The position numbers were made by a program, and so were the translations under genes. Below are positions 875 through 11,157 of a stretch of 11,157 nt of DNA, piece after piece. The stretch spans positions 1-11,157 of the forward strand of contig CAWIGG010000001.1 in the NCBI GenBank assembly GCA_963835575.1. The letters are read 5' to 3'. Source of the stretch: an uncultured Spirochaetota bacterium (GTDB lineage: Bacteria > Spirochaetota > Brevinematia > Brevinematales > JAOACQ01). How positions within the stretch are numbered: position 1 is the stretch's first letter; each line of letters opens with the position of its first letter. The notes under the pieces are model-generated. The model saw only the letters and a program-made list of their open reading frames with translations, was not told where the DNA came from and did not search any database.

Positions 875-1450
875 TTATCGCTTGTAAATCGGTGACCCAA
901 ATTGCCTGGTACCGTCAATAATTTCCAAAAATAATTTGTTATAATGGTCTAACCAATCAAAAGATGCTGAACCATTTTTATCAATTATGCTGGGATTTGC
1001 ACCATATTGGATCAGTAATTCCATAATATCATGTCTTCCATTCTTTATAGCAAGATTCAATAAAGTAGTTCCCTCAAAAAAACCAACTTCGTTGATATCA
1101 AAATCTTTCTTTATAGTTTCCATAAAAATATAGGAAATATAATCGAATTCAATATTCCCTCTCACCGCAAAGTATAATACAGTCTCTCTAGATGAATTTC
1201 TAAACGTTAAATCTGCCCCGCAATTCATTAGCAATCCAACCAACGGATTATATCCCATACTGCAGGCATACATCAAAGGCGTCATATCCCATTTATCTGG
1301 AGCGTTTATATCTGCACCCTCTAAGATAAGTTTCTCGGCGGTTTCCATTTGATAATCTACAATAGCCTGCACTAATGGGGTTGAAAATTTATCTTCACTA
1401 GTATTAGCGTAAAAACTCAAATGCTTATATTTTTCCGGCAGATCATTCAT
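875..1450 (-). CDS. Ankyrin-repeat protein (about 4 repeats)
   Basis: Ankyrin motifs TPLVQAI...GADINAPD, TPLMYAC...GADL, TVLYFAV, TLLNLAI...GANPSIID. Start moved to ATG 1450 because GGAGGT lies at 1461-1456. Confidence 0.9.
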   Translation of the reverse strand: MNDLPEKYKHLSFYANTSEDKFSTPLVQAIVDYQMETAEKLILEGADINAPDKWDMTPLMYACSMGYNPLVGLLMNCGADLTFRNSSRETVLYFAVRGNIEFDYISYIFMETIKKDFDINEVGFFEGTTLLNLAIKNGRHDIMELLIQYGANPSIIDKNGSASFDWLDHYNKLFLEIIDGTRQFGSPIYKR

Positions 1451-1493
1451 AATCAACCTCCATAGCCCTTATTAAAATCAATTTTATCTGTTT

Positions 1494-3793: not shown

Positions 3794-6523
3794 TTAAAAA
3801 CCTATGCTCATTCCCCTGTTATGCTTCAAATTTCTATGCAGACTTATTTCCCATTCAATATCATTTACAATCAGACTATGTTCACGGTCAATCGTTTTCT
3901 TATTTGTAAGTTCAACTTTAGGGTTGTTTTCATAATCGAGAGCCGTTTTTCTTTCTTCACAGATTTTTAAATTTTCCCGCATTACTTCCCTGTCGGTAGT
4001 ATAGATTTTTATAAGCTCTTTAAAACGGGTCAAAGGCACATATTCCCGGTCCGTGATTTTTTTCACATCAGTAAAATCCAAAAGTGTTTTTGAAAAATTG
4101 GCTCCCTGCGATTTCATATTGGTGATCGCATAAGAGTGGTCAAACTGAAAATACTTATCAAAGCTGATTTCCACAGAATTCCCATTATCTTTTCTAACGG
4201 TCATATTTGTATTATTAATGCCGGTTATTTTTCCGGTTTCCCCATTGGAAACATCCATCAATTTATCATTTTTCAAAAATATGATCTTATCATTAATACC
4301 GAATTCTTTATGTTCTGCCCTGCTGACCGAAAATTTATTATAATCCTGCTCCAGCTTGATTCCGTCTGTCAGGCCTGTCGAATTATTCATTACCAGTATT
4401 GTATTGTTTTTAACATCTAAACTTTTTATAATCCCAATGTTCCCTGTTTTTAAATTCTCCAAGTCTTTATTTGCTGTTATAAAATAACCCTTTTCATAAT
4501 TTGAAACATTGGTTTTTTGATCAGCAGTAAGACTGAGCGGATTGTGAACAAATATCTTATAATTACCGCTGATCATTCCGGCTTCTTTTAAAGCCAACCG
4601 GATTGTTTTGTTGAATTCATTTTTCTCCCGGTTTGACGGCGTCAATATAATGCTTTTCTGAGGATCAATTAGAAAATCTTTTATTATCTGTTGTTTTAAA
4701 CTGTCGACATCGCTATTTTCAATAATAGAACCGGACATGAAGAGTTTGTGAACAGCAATGTCTATTCTTTTTTCACTCAAGTCTTTTACTATTTCCTTGT
4801 GCTCTTCAGTTTTCTGCCGGACAATATCGGTGACTTTTATAACATTCAAATTCCTTTCAAAGTTTTCAAAATCCTTCCCGGCGGCAATACTGCGGAATTG
4901 TTTTGTATCCCCCGGCATAATCAGTTTATTCTCGGTGCCGGTGATCTCTTTTAAAATCATATTCATTTTTTTAGTGCCTATCATAGTCGCTTCATCTACA
5001 ATAAAAAGCTTTTTAGCCGGTTCCTTGGCATGCTTTTTCTGTAAAAAAGAATCTATTGTTTCGGCGGATATTTCCAGACTATCCCCCAATTCATTTTTTG
5101 CTTTGCCTGTAGGGGCCAGGGCGGTCACTTCATAACCTTTCGATTGAAAAGCTTCTTTGACGGCGTTCATAAGATAGGTTTTCCCTACCCCGGCATGTCC
5201 GGAAATCAAATCAAGCCGGTCAGAAGAAATAAGAATCCTTTCAAAAGCTTTCCGCTGTGATTTTGTAAAGGTGAAATTTTCTGCAAGCCCTTTGATCTCC
5301 TCCCTGGAGAATTCCGATTTAAAATCTTTTTTAAAGCTTTTTACTGTCCTTAAGTTTTCCAATTCAAGGTTTTTTATCTCTCTGGTCGTATATACTGTCT
5401 GATAACTATTCCTGACTTTTTCATAATCTTTAAGATGTTCAATTTCCCCATTCTTTTGAAACGCTTTTATCAGGCTATTAAAATCCGCATTGCCTTTAGA
5501 TATATTCAACGCTTTTTCCAAGATATCCTTTTTAGCAAACACAGCCTTTTCTTCCGTTATAATTTGAAGAGATTGTTTTATATAATATTCCGGTGGGAAT
5601 ATTTTGATGGAATTTTCCGGAAGATTTTCAAAAGACTTCGGCAATCCTCCGACACTTTTCCCCAACTCTTTCATTTCATTCTGCCAGACCTTTTTCACAG
5701 CTTCCAGATCAACCGATTGCTTTTCCTTCCGGGTGGAAAGAATCAATGCTTTTTCAAGGGATTTTGTATTTTCACCCAGCTCTTTTTCTTCTGCTATCTC
5801 CGTCAGTTTCTCCTTCATTACTTTGGTTCTTTTCGAGAAGTTTCCCCTGACTTCCTGGTCAAACCCATTTAATTTTGTATATCCATCATTATCAATGGAC
5901 GCATCGAATTTCTGTTCTCGCAAGCCCCGGCAAAGCTGGTTTTCATATATCATCATGATCAACTTCCTGTTGTCGTAAATAGCACTGTTATTAATCGCTT
6001 TAAACTTGTTGTCAGAGGTTTTTGTAATATTAAATATAACAGCATGAGTATGCGGCTGAGGATCGAGGTCACGGCTGGTGTGATGGTCGAATAAAACATA
6101 GAGCATTTTCTCGGTGTTAATATGCTCATAACCGTTTTTTCCATGATTGTAAGTCGATTGGACCAGATTATCTTCAATGTATTTCAGGGTGATTGAGACA
6201 GCATGTTTATGAGCCGTCATAATTTTTTCCGCGTCGCCGGGATTTTTAGAGAGGTAATATGTTACACCGATACTTTTATCAGGCGAGAAAGTCAGATCCC
6301 TGCCGGGATCGTGTTCGCCGTTACCGGCCAGAGTGATTATCCTTTTTCCATAAGCATTCTTACCATTGATCAAGCCCTGATAAGTCTTATCATCGAGGAC
6401 AGACAATTTCAAATCATCAGCCAGTTTGCCATGGAATTCAATTTTATCATTTTTGTCTTTCAGATAGTAATTGTCCTTTTCATATTTTTCCATAGAATTA
6501 TACATTTTTGAAATTGTAACCAT
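3794..6523 (-). CDS. MOBF-family relaxase-helicase (TrwC/TraI-like), 909 aa
   Basis: N-terminal Y...DNYY, DLTFSPDKS, HHTSRDLDPQPHTH (HUH motif); RecD-like SF1 helicase motifs GHAGVGKT, IVDEA, GDTKQ, RQ, HSYAIT..SQG, YVPLTR; AGGAG RBS at 6533-6529. Confidence 0.93.
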   Translation of the reverse strand: MVTISKMYNSMEKYEKDNYYLKDKNDKIEFHGKLADDLKLSVLDDKTYQGLINGKNAYGKRIITLAGNGEHDPGRDLTFSPDKSIGVTYYLSKNPGDAEKIMTAHKHAVSITLKYIEDNLVQSTYNHGKNGYEHINTEKMLYVLFDHHTSRDLDPQPHTHAVIFNITKTSDNKFKAINNSAIYDNRKLIMMIYENQLCRGLREQKFDASIDNDGYTKLNGFDQEVRGNFSKRTKVMKEKLTEIAEEKELGENTKSLEKALILSTRKEKQSVDLEAVKKVWQNEMKELGKSVGGLPKSFENLPENSIKIFPPEYYIKQSLQIITEEKAVFAKKDILEKALNISKGNADFNSLIKAFQKNGEIEHLKDYEKVRNSYQTVYTTREIKNLELENLRTVKSFKKDFKSEFSREEIKGLAENFTFTKSQRKAFERILISSDRLDLISGHAGVGKTYLMNAVKEAFQSKGYEVTALAPTGKAKNELGDSLEISAETIDSFLQKKHAKEPAKKLFIVDEATMIGTKKMNMILKEITGTENKLIMPGDTKQFRSIAAGKDFENFERNLNVIKVTDIVRQKTEEHKEIVKDLSEKRIDIAVHKLFMSGSIIENSDVDSLKQQIIKDFLIDPQKSIILTPSNREKNEFNKTIRLALKEAGMISGNYKIFVHNPLSLTADQKTNVSNYEKGYFITANKDLENLKTGNIGIIKSLDVKNNTILVMNNSTGLTDGIKLEQDYNKFSVSRAEHKEFGINDKIIFLKNDKLMDVSNGETGKITGINNTNMTVRKDNGNSVEISFDKYFQFDHSYAITNMKSQGANFSKTLLDFTDVKKITDREYVPLTRFKELIKIYTTDREVMRENLKICEERKTALDYENNPKVELTNKKTIDREHSLIVNDIEWEISLHRNLKHNRGMSIGF

Positions 6524-6558
6524 GCCGACTCCTTTGCTTTATCAGCTCAATGCTTATA

Positions 6559-7230
6559 TTAAATTTCTTTATACAATTCTTTCCATTGATCTTCTGGAAT
6601 AGCGCTATATTCAGTTGATTTTTCCCTTTCCTTATGCTCCAGTTCCAAACGCTTTTTTTCTTTTTCTCTCTCATACCTCTCAATAATTTCCTTGACTTGA
6701 AGCGGTTCATTTTTGATTATATGATTGACTATGGCATCAACATTCTTAATGTTATCCATTGCCTCGACATATTTTTTCACAATTTTGCGGATTTCTGAAG
6801 GAGAGAGATTTTTAGTATCTGGTTTATCATCAGGTTTAATATCTGGTAGTGATTTCGGAAAATTTGAAACTCGATTTCTGAATTTCCCGGAATCCATTTC
6901 GGAAATTTCCGAAATGCATAACCATTTGTCTTCATCCGCAAAAGCATACCATTTTGTCCGGTCAAATTTTATTTCGTTATAATTCCCGCTTAGCAGGATG
7001 CCTTTTTCTTCCAGTTTCTTCAGGGTATATTCAATTTGATTTCGAGTCAGATACGGATAGAGTCTTTCATAAGCTTTCACTGAGTTGTAAGTCCAATAAT
7101 GTCCATTAAAAAAATTCTGTCCGTTTGCCTTATTTTTTACAATCCAAAACTGGAAATTTTTTATCATTATCGCTTCAATGATTCCATATTCTGCCGCCAC
7201 ATTTATATCAAAGGAATGCTGCAAACTCAT
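6559..7230 (-). CDS. Phage-type replication initiator (winged-helix N-terminus, replisome organiser-like)
   Basis: N-terminus HSFDINVAAEYGIIEAI...FWI.KN.AN...NGHYWTYNS...YPYL...I...LKKLEEKGIL..GNYN...DRTKWY is characteristic of phage wHTH initiators; PDIKPDDKPD linker; internal iterons. Confidence 0.8.
   Translation of the reverse strand: MSLQHSFDINVAAEYGIIEAIMIKNFQFWIVKNKANGQNFFNGHYWTYNSVKAYERLYPYLTRNQIEYTLKKLEEKGILLSGNYNEIKFDRTKWYAFADEDKWLCISEISEMDSGKFRNRVSNFPKSLPDIKPDDKPDTKNLSPSEIRKIVKKYVEAMDNIKNVDAIVNHIIKNEPLQVKEIIERYEREKEKKRLELEHKEREKSTEYSAIPEDQWKELYKEI
6851..6916. repeat. Three tandem 22-bp iterons inside rep (putative replication origin)
   Basis: GATTTCGGAAAATTTGAAACTC / GATTTCTGAATTTCCCGGAATC / CATTTCGGAAATTTCCGAAATG; the third is a perfect 22-bp palindrome. 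Confidence 0.7.
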
Positions 7231-7252
7231 TACTTTCCCCAGGATTACAAAA

Positions 7253-7583
7253 CTATTGATTAAATAAATTACTCCGTATGAAAGGCATTAATTCCAACAC
7301 TACCCGCTCTTTCTCCTCTGATGAGAGGTTTAGAAAATATTCAATTGTCGCTTTTTCTTCAATACCCAGGTATTTTTCAATTTTGAATCGAGGAACCGGA
7401 AAATAAGTTGCCCTGCTGCCGGTTTTGAGAATCTTTCCCCGAGTTCCTGCCAATGATCATAGAAATAGTCAACTGAAAAAGAAGGAAACATCTCGGCGGC
7501 TTCAGCAGGACGAGCATATCATTATTTTTATGGTAATTCTCAATCCTTTTTTGTTTGAATTCTCTCCTTTCTTTCGCGGTCAT
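7253..7583 (-). pseudogene. Xis/HTH_17-like DNA-binding protein split by two single-base deletions (or sequencing errors)
   Basis: AGGGG RBS and ATG 7583. Adding one base near 7512 and one in the C-run 7437-7440 gives a 110-aa ORF containing DMLRPAEAAEMFPSFSVDYFYDHWQELGGKILKTGSRATYFPVPRFKIEKYL. Confidence 0.65.
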
Positions 7584-7594
7584 AATTATCCCCT

Positions 7595-7632
7595 AATAAA
7601 AATGCCCGATAGCGTTGTCGCGCTTATCGGGC
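7595..7632 (-). terminator. Intrinsic terminator-like hairpin in the leader of the xis-rep operon
   Basis: GCCCGAUAAGCG-CGACAA-CGCUAUCGGGC followed by AUUUUUAUU, ending directly before the RBS. Confidence 0.7.
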
Positions 7633-7740
7633 TGTTTCGGTGTAGATAAATCAAAAAGATACCATAATAATAACATAAAATATTCTAAAATTACCTACAC
7701 CAAATTTTTTCTGATAAGGTCGACAACCCTTATTTTATCA
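7595..7740 (-). ncRNA. Putative cis-regulatory structured leader RNA with loop-loop pseudoknot
   Basis: Three stems; the loop of stem 1 (GUUGUCG) is complementary to the terminator loop region (CGACAAC); the middle stem has two G-U pairs that form only on the minus strand. Confidence 0.55.
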
Positions 7741-7910
7741 ATAGTTTATTAGTAAATATTTGATATAAAAAAATCAATATTATATACTTTTAATTCGTCA
7801 ATAATCTTTTGGTAAAATTAGAATAAAGTAATAGAAGTATTTAGCTAACAAATACTTCAATAAGAAAATAAATATTACAATATGATAATAAAGGCCATTC
7901 ATAATGACCA

Positions 7911-7944
7911 ATTATATATTCAAAAATAAATATTGTCAATATTT
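7911..7944 (-). promoter_or_regulatory. Consensus sigma70 promoter for the leftward operon with overlapping palindromic operator
   Basis: TTGACA (7939-7934), 17 nt, TATAAT (7916-7911); palindrome AAATATTG-T-CAATATTT (7928-7944) covers the -35. Confidence 0.7.
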
Positions 7945-7962
7945 TTTTCATGAGGTATAATG

Positions 7963-8631
7963 ATGATTCAGGAAAGATTGAAATACTTAAGAAAAGAATT
8001 GAAACTAACTCAAAAAGAATTGGCTGAAAAACTAGAATTGAACCAACAAACTTATACAAATTATGAATACGGAAAAAGAGATATTCCTAATATAATATTA
8101 GAAAAGATTGCTTCATTATTTGATATTAATTTGAATTGGTTGATTACTGGTATGGGTAGAATGAAAAATGAAAGTATATCAACAAAAACACCTTTATTCC
8201 ATACATATGATTTTTTTAATGATTTTGATAAATTATTACCGTTTATTGCAAATCCAGTTGCCCATTTGATTGTTGAATCCACACCTTCTTCTAATTATAA
8301 CCTTCCCTGTATAGTTTTAGAATCAATTGACTCAGGTGAATGGTATGTTTTTGAACGTGGTAGAATTTCAATACAAGGAACTGGAGGAGGTTATAATAAT
8401 CTTCTCATTTTATTATCAAAATTGAAAAAAAATAATATATCATTAGGTAAATGGACTTTATCACAAAAAATGATTTCCGACTTTGAGTCCGGTCAAATTT
8501 TATGGCCTGAAGTTAAAAAGAATGCTGTACCTCTATTTTCATTTATAAGCAATCAGGATGATTGGCAATCAATAATCAAATACTTTAAGGAAATTCTTAT
8601 AAAAGAGTACATTGTTGAAGAAAAAAAATAA
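7963..8631 (+). CDS. XRE/CI-like HTH repressor with uncharacterised C-terminal domain
   Basis: ERLKYLRKELKLTQKELAEKL...YTNYEYGKRDIP...INLNWLITGMG is a classic HTH_3/CI N-terminus. GAGGT at 7952-7956 favours ATG 7963 (7960 is possible). Confidence 0.88.
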   Translation: MIQERLKYLRKELKLTQKELAEKLELNQQTYTNYEYGKRDIPNIILEKIASLFDINLNWLITGMGRMKNESISTKTPLFHTYDFFNDFDKLLPFIANPVAHLIVESTPSSNYNLPCIVLESIDSGEWYVFERGRISIQGTGGGYNNLLILLSKLKKNNISLGKWTLSQKMISDFESGQILWPEVKKNAVPLFSFISNQDDWQSIIKYFKEILIKEYIVEEKK

Positions 8632-8731
8632 CATCCTTTGTTTCGTACGATACAATAATACTATTCGGGGGAATTTTACAACTTAAGATTAACGCTGATT
8701 ATTTCTGATTCCATTATTGCGGGGGGTTTTC

Positions 8732-9963
8732 GTGGCAAAAGGAATTTCCGAAACTAAAAACAATGGATCACTTGAAAGTAAGCTCTGGCAAGCCGCTGAC
8801 AAGCTCCGGAAAAATATGGACGCCGCCGAATACAAGCATATCGTTCTAGGTTTGATATTTTTAAAATACATATCCGACGCTTTTGAAACCCTTTATATAA
8901 AGCTTAAGGAAGGTAAAGGCGATTTCGAAGGCGCTGATCCAGAAGACCCTAATGAATACATGGCTGAAAAAGTCTTCTTTGTTCCTTCCATCGCCAGATG
9001 GAAAAACATTTCAAATAACGCTAAAAAAACTGAGATAATTCTGGAAAAAAGGAAGAAAACGGATATCGGCGGCTATCTCGATGAGGCGATGGAAGCCATT
9101 GAGAAACTGAACCCGTCGTTAAAAGGCGTTCTCCCGAAATCCTACGCCCTGCCCAACCTGGACAGGCAGAGCCTGGGCGGATTGATCGATCTGATCGGCT
9201 CGATAGAACTCGGTACAAAACAGGCACAGGAGCGTGACATTCTAGGCCAGGTATATGAATATTTCCTCGGCCAGTTCGCCCTAAAGGCGGCCAGTTTTAT
9301 ACCCCCAGAAGCGTTGTCAAAATTCTCGTCGAAATGCTTGAGCCTTATGAAGGCAGGGTATTCGACCCCTGCTGCGGGTCGGGCGGCATGTTTGTCCAGA
9401 GTGAAAAGTTTGTAAACTTTCACCGCGATCATTATAAAAAAAACGGTTCGAATGGCTTTGAGCTTAATCCATCCGACCGGATTTCAATTTTCGGCCAGGA
9501 ATCGAATCAGACGACTTGGCGGCTATGCAAGATGAACCTCGTCATCCGGGGCATCGACAGTACAAACATCAAATGGAACAATGAAGGCTCTTTCCTGAAT
9601 GATGCCCATAAAGACGTGAAGGCCGATTTTATCCTGGCCAACCCTCCTTTTAACGATTCCGACTGGAGCGGCGCTCTCTTGAAGGACGACGCCCGCTGGC
9701 AGTTCGGAAAGTCCCCTTTCAATAACGCGAACTACGCCTGGATACAGCATTTTATTTATCACACTTCACCATCCGGCATAGCCGGTTTTGTTCTGGCCAA
9801 AGGCTCGCTTACATCAAAAACAAGCGGCGAGGGGGAAATCCGCAAGAATATTATAGAAGCCGGCCTTCTGGACTGCATCGTCAACCTGCCGGCAAAACTC
9901 TTCCTGAATACGCAGATACCGGCCCAGTCCTTTGGATGTAACAATGAACATCATAAAAGTTAA
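8732..9963 (+). pseudogene. hsdM: Type I restriction-modification methyltransferase subunit, frameshifted and 3'-truncated
   Basis: [47 protein letters not shown], then in another frame [24 protein letters not shown]. Frameshift at 9282/9283; homology ends after NTQIPA (about 9924); GTG start at 8732 after a G-rich RBS. Confidence 0.9.
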
Positions 9964-9973
9964 TCCTCACACG

Positions 9974-10002
9974 TTGACTTTTGTACCGTACATCATTAAA
10001 AT
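9974..10002 (+). promoter_or_regulatory. sigma70-type promoter of the integrase gene (probably leaderless)
   Basis: TTGACT (9974-9979), 17 nt, TAAAAT (9997-10002); ATG 8 nt downstream with no Shine-Dalgarno (SD) sequence. Confidence 0.6.
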
Positions 10003-10010
10003 AAACGGCG

Positions 10011-11068
10011 ATGGCTGACAGATTTGAAATAAAAAAAGTTTCCGCGGCTCTCAACGGCGACTGCCTGATTGAATTGTCCATACCCCGTGCCCAGAGTCTT
10101 CTGCAGAAAGTACGCATGATCCCCGGCCGGAAATGGGACGCCGGTAAAAAAACCTGGCTGATCCCCGATACTCCGCAGGCGCGGCTTTTAATTGAGCAGT
10201 ATTTCGACGTTTCCATAAAGAACGCGGATGAAAATCCCGTTCAGGCCGCGATCGGGCGGGAAACCCGCATCCGCGGGTACAGCAGGAAAACAAAAGAATC
10301 GTATTCCAGGTATAATATTTCCATGCTGGAATATTTGAATAAGGCGCCGGAAGAGGTCAATTCGCAGGACATTAAAAATTACTTGGATTACCTGGCCGAT
10401 GAAAAGAAAGCCGCAGCTTCCACGCTCAACTGCGCCGTCAATGCCCTGAGGTTTTATTACGGAGTAATATTAGGGAAAGATTTTGTTTACCGGGTAAAGC
10501 GGGCAAAGAAAGATAAAAAGCTGCCGGCGATACTGAGCAAAGAGGAAGTAAAGGCCCTTATTGACAGTTACAAAAATATTAAACACAGGCTGATCATAAC
10601 CCTGATTTATTCCGCAGGACTCCGGTTATCCGAAGCGGTTAATATGCAGATAGCTGATATTGATAAAGAGCGGAAACTGATCCACATCCGGGCTTCTAAA
10701 AACAAGAAAGACCGTTATACCTTACTGTCCGATAATATCATGCCATTATTGAAAATGTATATCCAGAACTATCAGCCTCAGAATTGGCTTTTTGAGGGTC
10801 AGGGAAAAGGATTAAAAATCAGCGGCCGGACAGTTCAAGCAATTTTTCAACAGGGAATTATTAAAACCGGTATTAAGAAAAATGCGAGCGTTCACTCTTT
10901 GAAGCATTCTTTTGCAACGCATCTTCTTGAAAATGGAACGGATATTCGATATATACAAGAAATTCTTGGACACTAATCCAGTAAAACCACTGAGATTTAT
11001 ACCCATGTCCGGCGGAGAAAGACTTGAGAAAGATCATCAGCCCGTTAGATAGAATGGGAACGATATGA
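10011..11068 (+). pseudogene. Integron-integrase-like tyrosine recombinase with N-terminal HARP-like domain; inactivated
   Basis: SAM-like RGYSRKT..Y, KLPAILSKEEV, YSAGLRLSE, KNKKDR, HSLKHSFATHLLE, IRYIQEILGH. TAA at 10974-10976 precedes SSKTTEIYTHV; a frameshift near 11010 precedes KDLRKIISPLD...TGA 11066-11068. Confidence 0.85.
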
Positions 11069-11093
11069 CTGCGTGTTTTGTCCCGAATCGGAA

Positions 11094-11157
11094 GGATATA
11101 CGCAGTGCGGATATCCCTCTGAATTTGGGTAGTTATACGCATTGCGTATATAAAGAG
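11094..11157 (+). repeat. Two related palindromes after the integrase; candidate attI region
   Basis: GGATATACGCA-G-TGCGGATATCC (11094-11116) and TATACGCA-T-TGCGTATA (11134-11150); the window ends at TAAAGAG. Confidence 0.5.

Follow-up and report, generated by a model that had tools for sequence, protein, structure and literature searches.

The window analysed here, the entire 11,157-bp contig CAWIGG010000001.1 of an uncultured Spirochaetota bacterium whose genome comprises 4.39 Mb in 7 contigs, contains a group of mobile-element genes in which the gene for a 110-aa protein, a phage-type replication initiator gene (rep) and a gene for a TrwC/MobF relaxase-helicase follow one another on the minus strand, with a cI-like repressor candidate encoded divergently (Table 1). 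Between a promoter-like site and the start codon of the 110-aa gene lies a leader of three hairpins, here called H1, H2 and H3, and the loops of H1 and H3 carry 7-mers that are exact complements of each other. The minus strand of the window was read directly, and all leader coordinates refer to that strand. The reading recovered each of the three minus-strand hairpins where the original prediction had placed them, as well as the 14-bp H2 stem with two G-U wobbles and an AU-rich loop and the exact complementarity of GUUGUCG and CGACAAC. Two of the 14 pairs in the H2 stem are G-U, and the top of H2 measures 41 nt. H3 consists of 11 pairs, 8 of them G-C, with one bulged A and the loop CGACAA. As a GC-rich hairpin followed by a U-tract on the transcribed strand, it has the anatomy expected of an intrinsic (Rho-independent) terminator, an anatomy shared by its equivalents in the homologous leaders described below and consistent with the earlier assignment of H3 as a terminator.

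Table 1. Features of the leader and of the genes around it in the 11,157-bp window.
Feature	Position	Strand	Description
Promoter-like site	7939-7911	minus	TTGACA-17-TATAAT, 12/12 match, sigma-70-type; points into the leader; presumed transcript start
H1	7733-7714	minus	Weak hairpin; stem AUAAGG (7733-7728) / CCUUAU (7719-7714), 8-nt loop GUUGUCGA
Alternative nested helix, antiterminator-like (predicted)	7730-7611	minus	7730-7713 pairs with 7628-7611; encloses H2
Loop-1 7-mer	7727-7721	minus	GUUGUCG; partner of the loop-3 7-mer
H2	7704-7636	minus	14-pair stem, UUUGGUGUAGGUAA (7704-7691) / UUAUCUACACCGAA (7649-7636)
H3	7632-7604	minus	GC-rich hairpin GCCCGAUAAGCG / CGCUAUCGGGC; putative terminator stem
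Loop-3 7-mer	7620-7614	minus	CGACAAC; six loop bases and the first base of the 3' arm
U-rich tract	7603-7595	minus	AUUUUUAUU; immediately 3' of H3
Ribosome-binding site (RBS) and start codon of the first gene	7594-7581	minus	AGGGGA; AUG at 7583-7581
First gene of the operon	7583-7253	minus	110 aa when intact; split over three frames here
Phage-type replication initiator (rep)	7230-6559	minus	223 aa; phrog_11233, E 3.1e-34
TrwC/MobF relaxase-helicase	6523-3794	minus	909 aa; PF08751, E 3.3e-55; NF041492 MobF, E 2.2e-54
HTH_3 (cI-like) repressor candidate, divergent	7960-8631	plus	223 aa; PF01381, E 1.8e-15; phrog_8, E 1.1e-20

The comparison is based on three distinct leaders: that of the window genome, that of a genome of the same genus (G001, locus L004) and that of a genome from another genus of the same family (G008, locus L020). 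The structure of the leader, together with its loop match, is well beyond chance. The minimum free energy (MFE) fold of 7745-7584 (162 nt, ViennaRNA) is the three-hairpin fold at -47.3 kcal/mol; 200 dinucleotide shuffles of the same segment have a mean of -28.05 and a standard deviation of 3.42 (z -5.63), and not one of them is equally stable. A 130-nt core of the window leader reaches -42.2 kcal/mol on the minus strand, with a z-score of -5.5, vs -31.8 kcal/mol on the opposite strand, and the corresponding z-scores in G001 and G008 are -4.4 and -4.6. The sense strand is the more stable one in two of the three leaders, and the MFE folds of the window, G001 and G008 contain 7, 4 and 6 G-U pairs on the sense strand compared with 1, 5 and 3 on the antisense strand. 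The loop 7-mer occurs three times on the two strands of the window, where 0.42 occurrences are expected and a count of three is reached by 1 of 200 shuffles; two of these occurrences are the loops, and the third lies at 5969-5975. At each of the two homologous loci the 7-mer occurs twice, in both loops only, against an expectation of 0.07, and a count of two is reached by none of 200 shuffles.

All three leaders are located between a same-strand promoter-like site (12/12 in the window and in G001, 11/12 in G008) and a start codon, all three have H1-H2-H3 as their MFE fold, and in all three a T-run follows H3 on the same strand (UUAUUUUUU in G001 and AUUUUUGUUUUG in G008). H3 is nearly invariant, with 11 pairs that are 97.7% paired across the homologues and one pair changed on both sides; in G008, two of its pairs are replaced by one G-C and one G-U pair, and the bulge is shifted. 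The H1 stem reads GGG(U)/(G)CCC in G001 and G008, compared with AUAAGG/CCUUAU in the window, at similar stability (folded alone, -5.2 kcal/mol in the window and -5.9 and -5.6 in the homologues), and ViennaRNA draws H1 of both homologues with a 4-nt loop closed by a U-G pair. In H2 of G001 the core GUGUAG/CUACAC is kept and the distal pairs GGUAA/UUAUC have become UUUU/AAAA, while G008 still forms an H2 stem, from unrelated sequence (GCGGAU... / ...AUCCGC). The two loops read GUGGUAG and CUACCAC in G001 and G008, where the window has GUUGUCG and CGACAAC. Two positions have thus changed in each loop, as two double changes, with complementarity kept; this is the outcome that the original prediction had named as its test, loop-loop covariation, here through two compensatory double changes among three leaders. 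Alignment A2, whose statistics count four rows with G001 entered twice with different ends and therefore represent three distinct leaders, has its six loop-loop pairs paired in 100% of cells, two of them changed on both sides. When the partner is shifted by 1-3 columns, whole-structure pairing falls from 97.5% to 32-42%. RNAalifold, applied to a MAFFT alignment, found H1 and H3 and missed H2, because MAFFT cannot align H2.

The leader is rare. A nucleotide search of 61 relatives gave one convincing match outside the window's own genome, that in G001 (E 9e-8); nine other relatives gave short matches of AT-rich DNA (E 3e-5 to 7e-4), which were not used. The terminator-core pattern is present in 3 of 401 genomes sampled across the phylum and in none of the viral contigs searched. 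A covariance model of the leader, run on 35 genomes of the order, returned the same three genomes only at E<=1e-21; the next-best score, E 0.012 at 31 bits, equals that of the window's own antisense strand, and neither of the two weak covariance-model matches that were read has the GC hairpin. Scans of genome contigs and of metagenome contigs each added one locus (L016 and L017, respectively) with a leader identical to that of G001. Protein scans of viral contigs yielded only a provirus record in IMG/VR (L033), which is the same as the G008 locus over the compared bases and starts 6 nt before the gene, so that it holds no leader. A distant blastn search of 7300-8000 against the plasmids of PLSDB gave no match. 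The original prediction had refrained from assigning the leader to a named RNA family, and indeed cmscan of the whole window against Rfam 15 (E<=1) found no family at the leader; the sole match, rox1 at 6891-6920 with 24.6 bits against a gathering threshold of 58, is a palindrome in the rep gene and lies outside the leader. The leader represents a new sequence family that is limited, as far as searched, to three Brevinematales-like genomes.

The genes that accompany the leader differ among the loci. The G001 locus has an integrase, a repressor, a 112-aa gene, an initiator of the HTH_36 family and ParA, with no relaxase among the open reading frames (ORFs) of at least 90 aa in the 3 kb downstream. 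The G008 locus has small phage-like genes and a DNA methylase, with neither rep nor relaxase among the ORFs of at least 90 aa in the 3 kb downstream. Replication genes thus lie downstream of the leader at two of the three loci, and by these gene contents the leader travels with the 110-aa gene and not with rep or the relaxase. In the original prediction the leader gates a xis-rep-relaxase operon; the link that recurs among the loci is that to the 110-aa gene.

The loop complementarity forms part of a longer imperfect inverted repeat, I5, in which 15 of 18 positions match. Because its two segments flank H2, their pairing is nested, requires no pseudoknot and can be scored. When the transcript ends right after the loop-3 7-mer, before the 3' arm of H3, the nested helix is the MFE fold in all three leaders, and it occupies part of the H3 5' arm. 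At full length, the terminator form lies at -51.0 kcal/mol in the window, -40.9 in G001 and -55.6 in G008, and the fold with the nested helix forced lies at -47.5, -35.9 and -50.1 kcal/mol, respectively. The direct-path barriers from the alternative to the terminator form, which are heuristic upper bounds, amount to 20.3, 17.9 and 18.9 kcal/mol in the same order. In these folding models, the interplay between nested helix and terminator is the signature that a kinetically controlled attenuator would be predicted to leave. The kissing loops of the original prediction are therefore one of two readings: the loop complementarity on which they were built is conserved, and it can also form a nested helix that excludes the terminator.

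On balance, we favour the view that the region forms the structured 5' leader of an early operon, carried by an integrative or mobilisable element, and that it probably works as a transcription attenuator by means of the complementarity between H1 and H3. A nested antiterminator helix is the preferred form of this mechanism, as modelled, with a true kissing complex as its main variant. Transcription would start at the strong promoter near 7939-7911. H1, a weak hairpin, would form first and display a loop of 6-8 nt, followed by the long H2. The 5' arm and loop of the emerging H3, which are complementary to the loop of H1 and to the bases flanking that loop on its 3' side, would then make contact with it, and this loop contact would nucleate a helix that encloses H2 and sequesters the H3 5' arm, favouring read-through into the 110-aa gene, rep and the relaxase gene. 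Were the pairing blocked, H3 would close, the U-tract would follow and transcription would stop just before the RBS. H1 would in this way act as a weak anti-antiterminator whose nucleating bases remain exposed in its loop, the helix of the H1 segment with the H3 5' arm as the antiterminator, and H3 as the terminator. We infer that the transcript is made, that H3 terminates it, that the two folds compete in time and that a factor on the H1 loop, either a protein or another RNA, decides the outcome. The most economical candidates for this input are a protein or an RNA that occupies the H1 loop, for example the terminated leader itself, an attractive option given that the H1 loop is exactly complementary to its terminator loop.

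Several observations weigh against this proposal. The number of independent sequences is three, and since the loops of G001 and G008 are identical, the covariation amounts to one lineage with two double changes; moreover, covariation within an inverted repeat is as compatible with paired DNA sites as it is with RNA pairing. The terminator form makes up more than 97% of the equilibrium ensemble, and any switching must therefore be kinetic. Beyond the core of 7-8 nt, the pairs of the nested helix differ in register among the three leaders, and in G001 the antisense strand folds more stably than the sense strand (-41.9 vs -38.2 kcal/mol). A simple terminator scan did not list H3 in the window or at either homologous locus, and in the window it listed 7909-7893 alone, presumably because the bulge of H3 breaks the scanner's perfect-stem rule. 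No sensor and no conserved junction resembling a ligand pocket was found in the leaders. Nor do the three leaders have a conserved leader peptide: a 27-codon ORF in the window (AUG at 7676, stop at 7593) has no ORF in the same place in G001 or G008, and short ORFs that end near H1 (stop at 7730 in the window and at 1988 in G008) are without a Shine-Dalgarno sequence and have no counterpart in G001. Likewise, the three loci share no conserved antisense promoter across H1-H3; within the structure the opposite strand has a single site, a 9/12 match at 7643-7671 of the window, which lacks a counterpart at L004 and L020, and the 10/12 plus-strand sites that are conserved fire away from H1. The ideas of a leader peptide and of a countertranscript were dropped on account of the ORF that is not conserved in G001 or G008 and of the missing conserved antisense promoter over the hairpins, respectively.

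An element that works at the level of DNA, with the 7-mers and the H2 arms as inverted double-stranded sites for the repressor, the 110-aa protein or the initiator and the RNA folds as a by-product, is in our estimate unlikely, and the same low probability applies to its variant, a cruciform or a single-strand signal such as an origin of transfer (oriT) or a replication origin. Such a reading draws on the fact that the region as a whole forms a single large, imperfect inverted repeat in which a module, GTTGTCG-NN-CTTATC followed after ~10 nt by TTYGGTGTAGRTAA, occurs once per strand (inverted repeats I3 and I5), and inverted sites of one protein would likewise change in concert. A relaxase is encoded on the element and its oriT was not located, and a 10/12 plus-strand promoter-like site stands 9-27 nt from H1 at the three loci, where the DNA of H1 could regulate it. 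However, the leader is conserved at loci without a relaxase (G001 and G008) or without an initiator (G008), and the version of the 7-mer is uncorrelated with the divergence of the adjacent protein: the 7-mers of G001 and G008 are identical although the G008 protein is only ~38% identical to that of the window, and those of G001 differ from the window's although its protein is 73% identical. This lack of correlation favours the RNA level, as does the persistence of the H2 stem in G008 with unrelated sequence. Also favouring the RNA level are the position of the leader behind a strong promoter, in a putative 5' untranslated region, at three loci, the T-run found after H3 on one strand only, the better folding of the sense strand in two of the three leaders, and the G-U pairs in H2 and H3 (two in H2 of the window and one each in H2 and H3 of G008), which in DNA or on the opposite strand would be A-C mismatches. 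The spacing between the 7-mers, 107, 98 and 98 bp across the three leaders, speaks against paired DNA sites as well, and the iterons and palindromes inside the rep gene are better candidates for an origin. Very improbable, and already disfavoured, is the reading of H3 as a plain terminator or insulator, accompanied by two AT-rich hairpins, H1 and H2, that are there incidentally, with no function for the loop match. AT-rich spacers do yield many weak hairpins and promoter-like matches (6 found, 4.8 expected), and the sequences number three; yet the z-score of -5.6 with 0/200 shuffles as stable, the presence of the rare 7-mers in matching loops each time, the two compensatory double changes and an architecture held between genera whose adjacent proteins have diverged so far are all difficult to reconcile with chance.

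Among the readings at the RNA level, a true kissing-loop pseudoknot would have H1 and H3 stay closed and their loops pair, with H2 as a strut and no alternative secondary structure; we regard it as improbable, and assign no greater probability to the associated role, a compact fold of the terminated leader, by which the terminator would be stabilised or timed or the RNA protected. Fully paired loop-loop complexes of 6-7 nt exist, as in TAR-TAR* and ColE1 RNA I/II, and the loops of G001 and G008 can be drawn as 6 nt that are fully complementary (UGGUAG/CUACCA). The retention of an H1 stem in the three leaders at -5.2 to -5.9 kcal/mol, despite its differing sequence, would also be expected of kissing hairpins, as would the lack of a conserved register where the nested helix extends past the core. 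Against this, the 4-nt, U-G-closed H1 loops drawn for G001 and G008 would have to open, the stems are of unequal length (3-6 bp in H1 vs 11 bp in H3), and the strong GC terminator folds unaided. Alternatively, the terminated leader may be a trans-acting small RNA of ~200-300 nt, whose loops pair between molecules or with leaders still being transcribed and in this way adjust how much termination occurs; the result would be dosage-dependent immunity or copy control that needs no antisense gene of its own. We consider this quite unlikely. With a consensus promoter and a strong terminator, the short RNA would be the main transcript, and the terminator loop of the finished RNA is the exact complement of the nascent H1 loop. 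A precedent is found in P4, where, according to PMC4825925, the CI RNA is processed from the leader and has its pairing partners, seqA and seqC, in that same transcript, and the abstract of a 2024 paper (PMC11979758) reports regulatory use of terminator loops by small RNAs. This reading is, however, pure inference; the leader matches neither C4 nor any other family in Rfam, and its sequence cannot separate pairing in cis from pairing in trans. Combining such an RNA with the attenuator, the attenuated leader would be its own antisense regulator: short transcripts would occupy nascent H1, block the antiterminator helix and enforce termination. This extension we hold to be rather unlikely, but if it were true, one promoter and one RNA would give dosage-dependent immunity or copy control over genes of excision, replication and transfer, a circuit like that of P4 CI cut down to two hairpin loops and without a separate antisense gene.

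The functionally closest known systems are the pT181 and pIP501 attenuators, of which that of pT181 involves an interaction of kissing hairpins according to PMC3753616. Like them, the attenuator proposed here would be a leader before an operon with replication genes, with an intrinsic terminator set by upstream pairing, a contact of hairpin loops that starts the decision and mutually exclusive antiterminator and terminator pairings, the last of these predicted in all three leaders. The partner in pT181 and pIP501, however, is a separate antisense RNA from the opposite strand, whereas here both loops are in one sense transcript, and the promoter for a countertranscript that characterises those systems was not found. 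In P4, according to PMC4825925, the leader-derived CI RNA pairs with seqA and seqC and thereby causes premature termination before the replication genes. The pairing partner in P4 is thus a stable RNA that arises by processing and has two targets. The leader shares with P4 CI and P1 c4 the presence of complementary segments within one leader of a mobile element (7-8 nt at all three loci here). It has no sequence or Rfam relation to them, and its single 7-8 nt pair resides in two loops that flank a long hairpin, one of them a terminator loop. In the IncI-alpha/IncB plasmids (ColIb-P9, pMU720), an upstream hairpin loop pairs with a target ~100 nt downstream and controls the rep gene; the resulting pseudoknot beside the rep RBS activates translation, in a system that depends both on translation of a leader peptide and on an antisense Inc RNA. 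The distance of ~100 nt from loop to target is similar in our leader, but the target here is a terminator loop 20-40 nt upstream of the RBS, the single ORF of the leader is not conserved, and there is no evident gene for an antisense RNA. With trp-type attenuators the leader has in common the succession of H1 (1:2), alternative helix (2:3) and terminator (3:4); it differs in that a 69-nt hairpin stands between segments 2 and 3, that segment 2 has an exposed loop and not a paired strand as its core, and that no conserved leader peptide covers segment 1. The leader belongs to none of the pT181/pIP501, P4 CI/P1 c4, IncI-alpha/IncB and trp-type families. It also differs from the oriT of MOBF (TrwC-type) systems in its lack of linkage to a relaxase, and the idea of an oriT was rejected since the leader is present in G001 and G008 with no relaxase among the ORFs of at least 90 aa within 3 kb downstream.

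Attenuators that gate replication or transfer genes have been described in a handful of plasmids and phages of well-studied bacteria and, to our knowledge, nearly all of them use a separate antisense RNA or a translated leader peptide. Neither was found for the present leader, in which both contact partners are in one transcript with a long hairpin between them. If the proposal works, this would be a compact, self-contained design of an RNA switch, a second layer of control, placed behind a cI-type repressor, for mobile elements in a hardly studied order related to the spirochaetes, and a new small RNA family for the databases. Nature supplies two versions of the loop pair that are orthogonal to each other, so that a clean swap comparison is possible.

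Around the promoter-like site of the leader, further features can be discerned. A small hairpin, GGTCATTATGAATGGCC followed by TTTATTATCA, lies at 7909-7893 on the minus strand, at the presumed transcript start, and is flagged as terminator-like; in G008, another strong hairpin and a 20-bp perfect palindrome are located between promoter and H1. The opposite-strand 10/12 promoter-like site shared by all three loci (plus strand; 7760-7788 in the window, 1658-1686 in L004 and 2001-2029 in L020) faces the divergent regulator gene and converges with the leader promoter, and it may be a second, face-to-face promoter of the switch.

The product of the first gene belongs to no family in Pfam, NCBIfam or PHROG. 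Its AF2 (AlphaFold2) model, with a predicted local distance difference test score (pLDDT) of 76, has a winged-helix-like core; compared with the PDB, the model has no match at E<=0.001, the top rows are weak winged-helix regulators, and the excisionase RdfS takes rank 32. All matches of the protein in the Atlas were below 0.9. The family is tiny, with 4 matches in a search of 5.8 billion proteins and 8 matches at E<=0.001 among 1.84 billion representatives; weak protein matches in two further genomes, G188 and G367 (E 0.003-0.007), were not used. The name xis, which the original prediction had given to the first gene, is a guess from gene position and remains unproven by these comparisons. In the window the gene is split by two one-base indels relative to the copy on contig C7, near 7436 (in a C-run) and near 7511; the intact 110-aa ORF is that of the C7 copy (L001:1698-2030), and the copy on contig C6 holds one of the two differences. 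The indels could be an assembly error or real decay.

These copies belong to a repeated segment: positions 5005-11157 of the window recur on C7 and at the end of C6 with 99.7-99.8% identity, which reflects either several related elements or unresolved assembly paths. The leader accordingly has three copies in its own genome, 100% identical and all within this one repeated 6-kb segment, and the 12-mers of H1 and H3 have no further exact copy in the genome save one H3-core 12-mer at C2:1766599; the leader is accordingly no member of a dispersed palindromic repeat family with many scattered copies. Inside the rep gene, a cluster of direct and inverted repeats built from TTTCGGAAA and GATTTCTGAA spans 6783-6943 and includes a 14+14 palindrome at 6892-6919, an iteron-like candidate for an origin within the initiator gene. 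On the plus strand, two overlapping ORFs (8717-9415 and 9334-9963) make up a split type I methylase gene, hsdM, which is followed by a tyrosine recombinase gene (10011-10976), a layout that recalls invertible specificity-gene systems. The left 5 kb of the window are unique in the genome and encode, beside small unknown ORFs and ParA, an ankyrin-repeat protein of 193 aa (875-1456, minus strand), an odd cargo for a bacterial mobile element.

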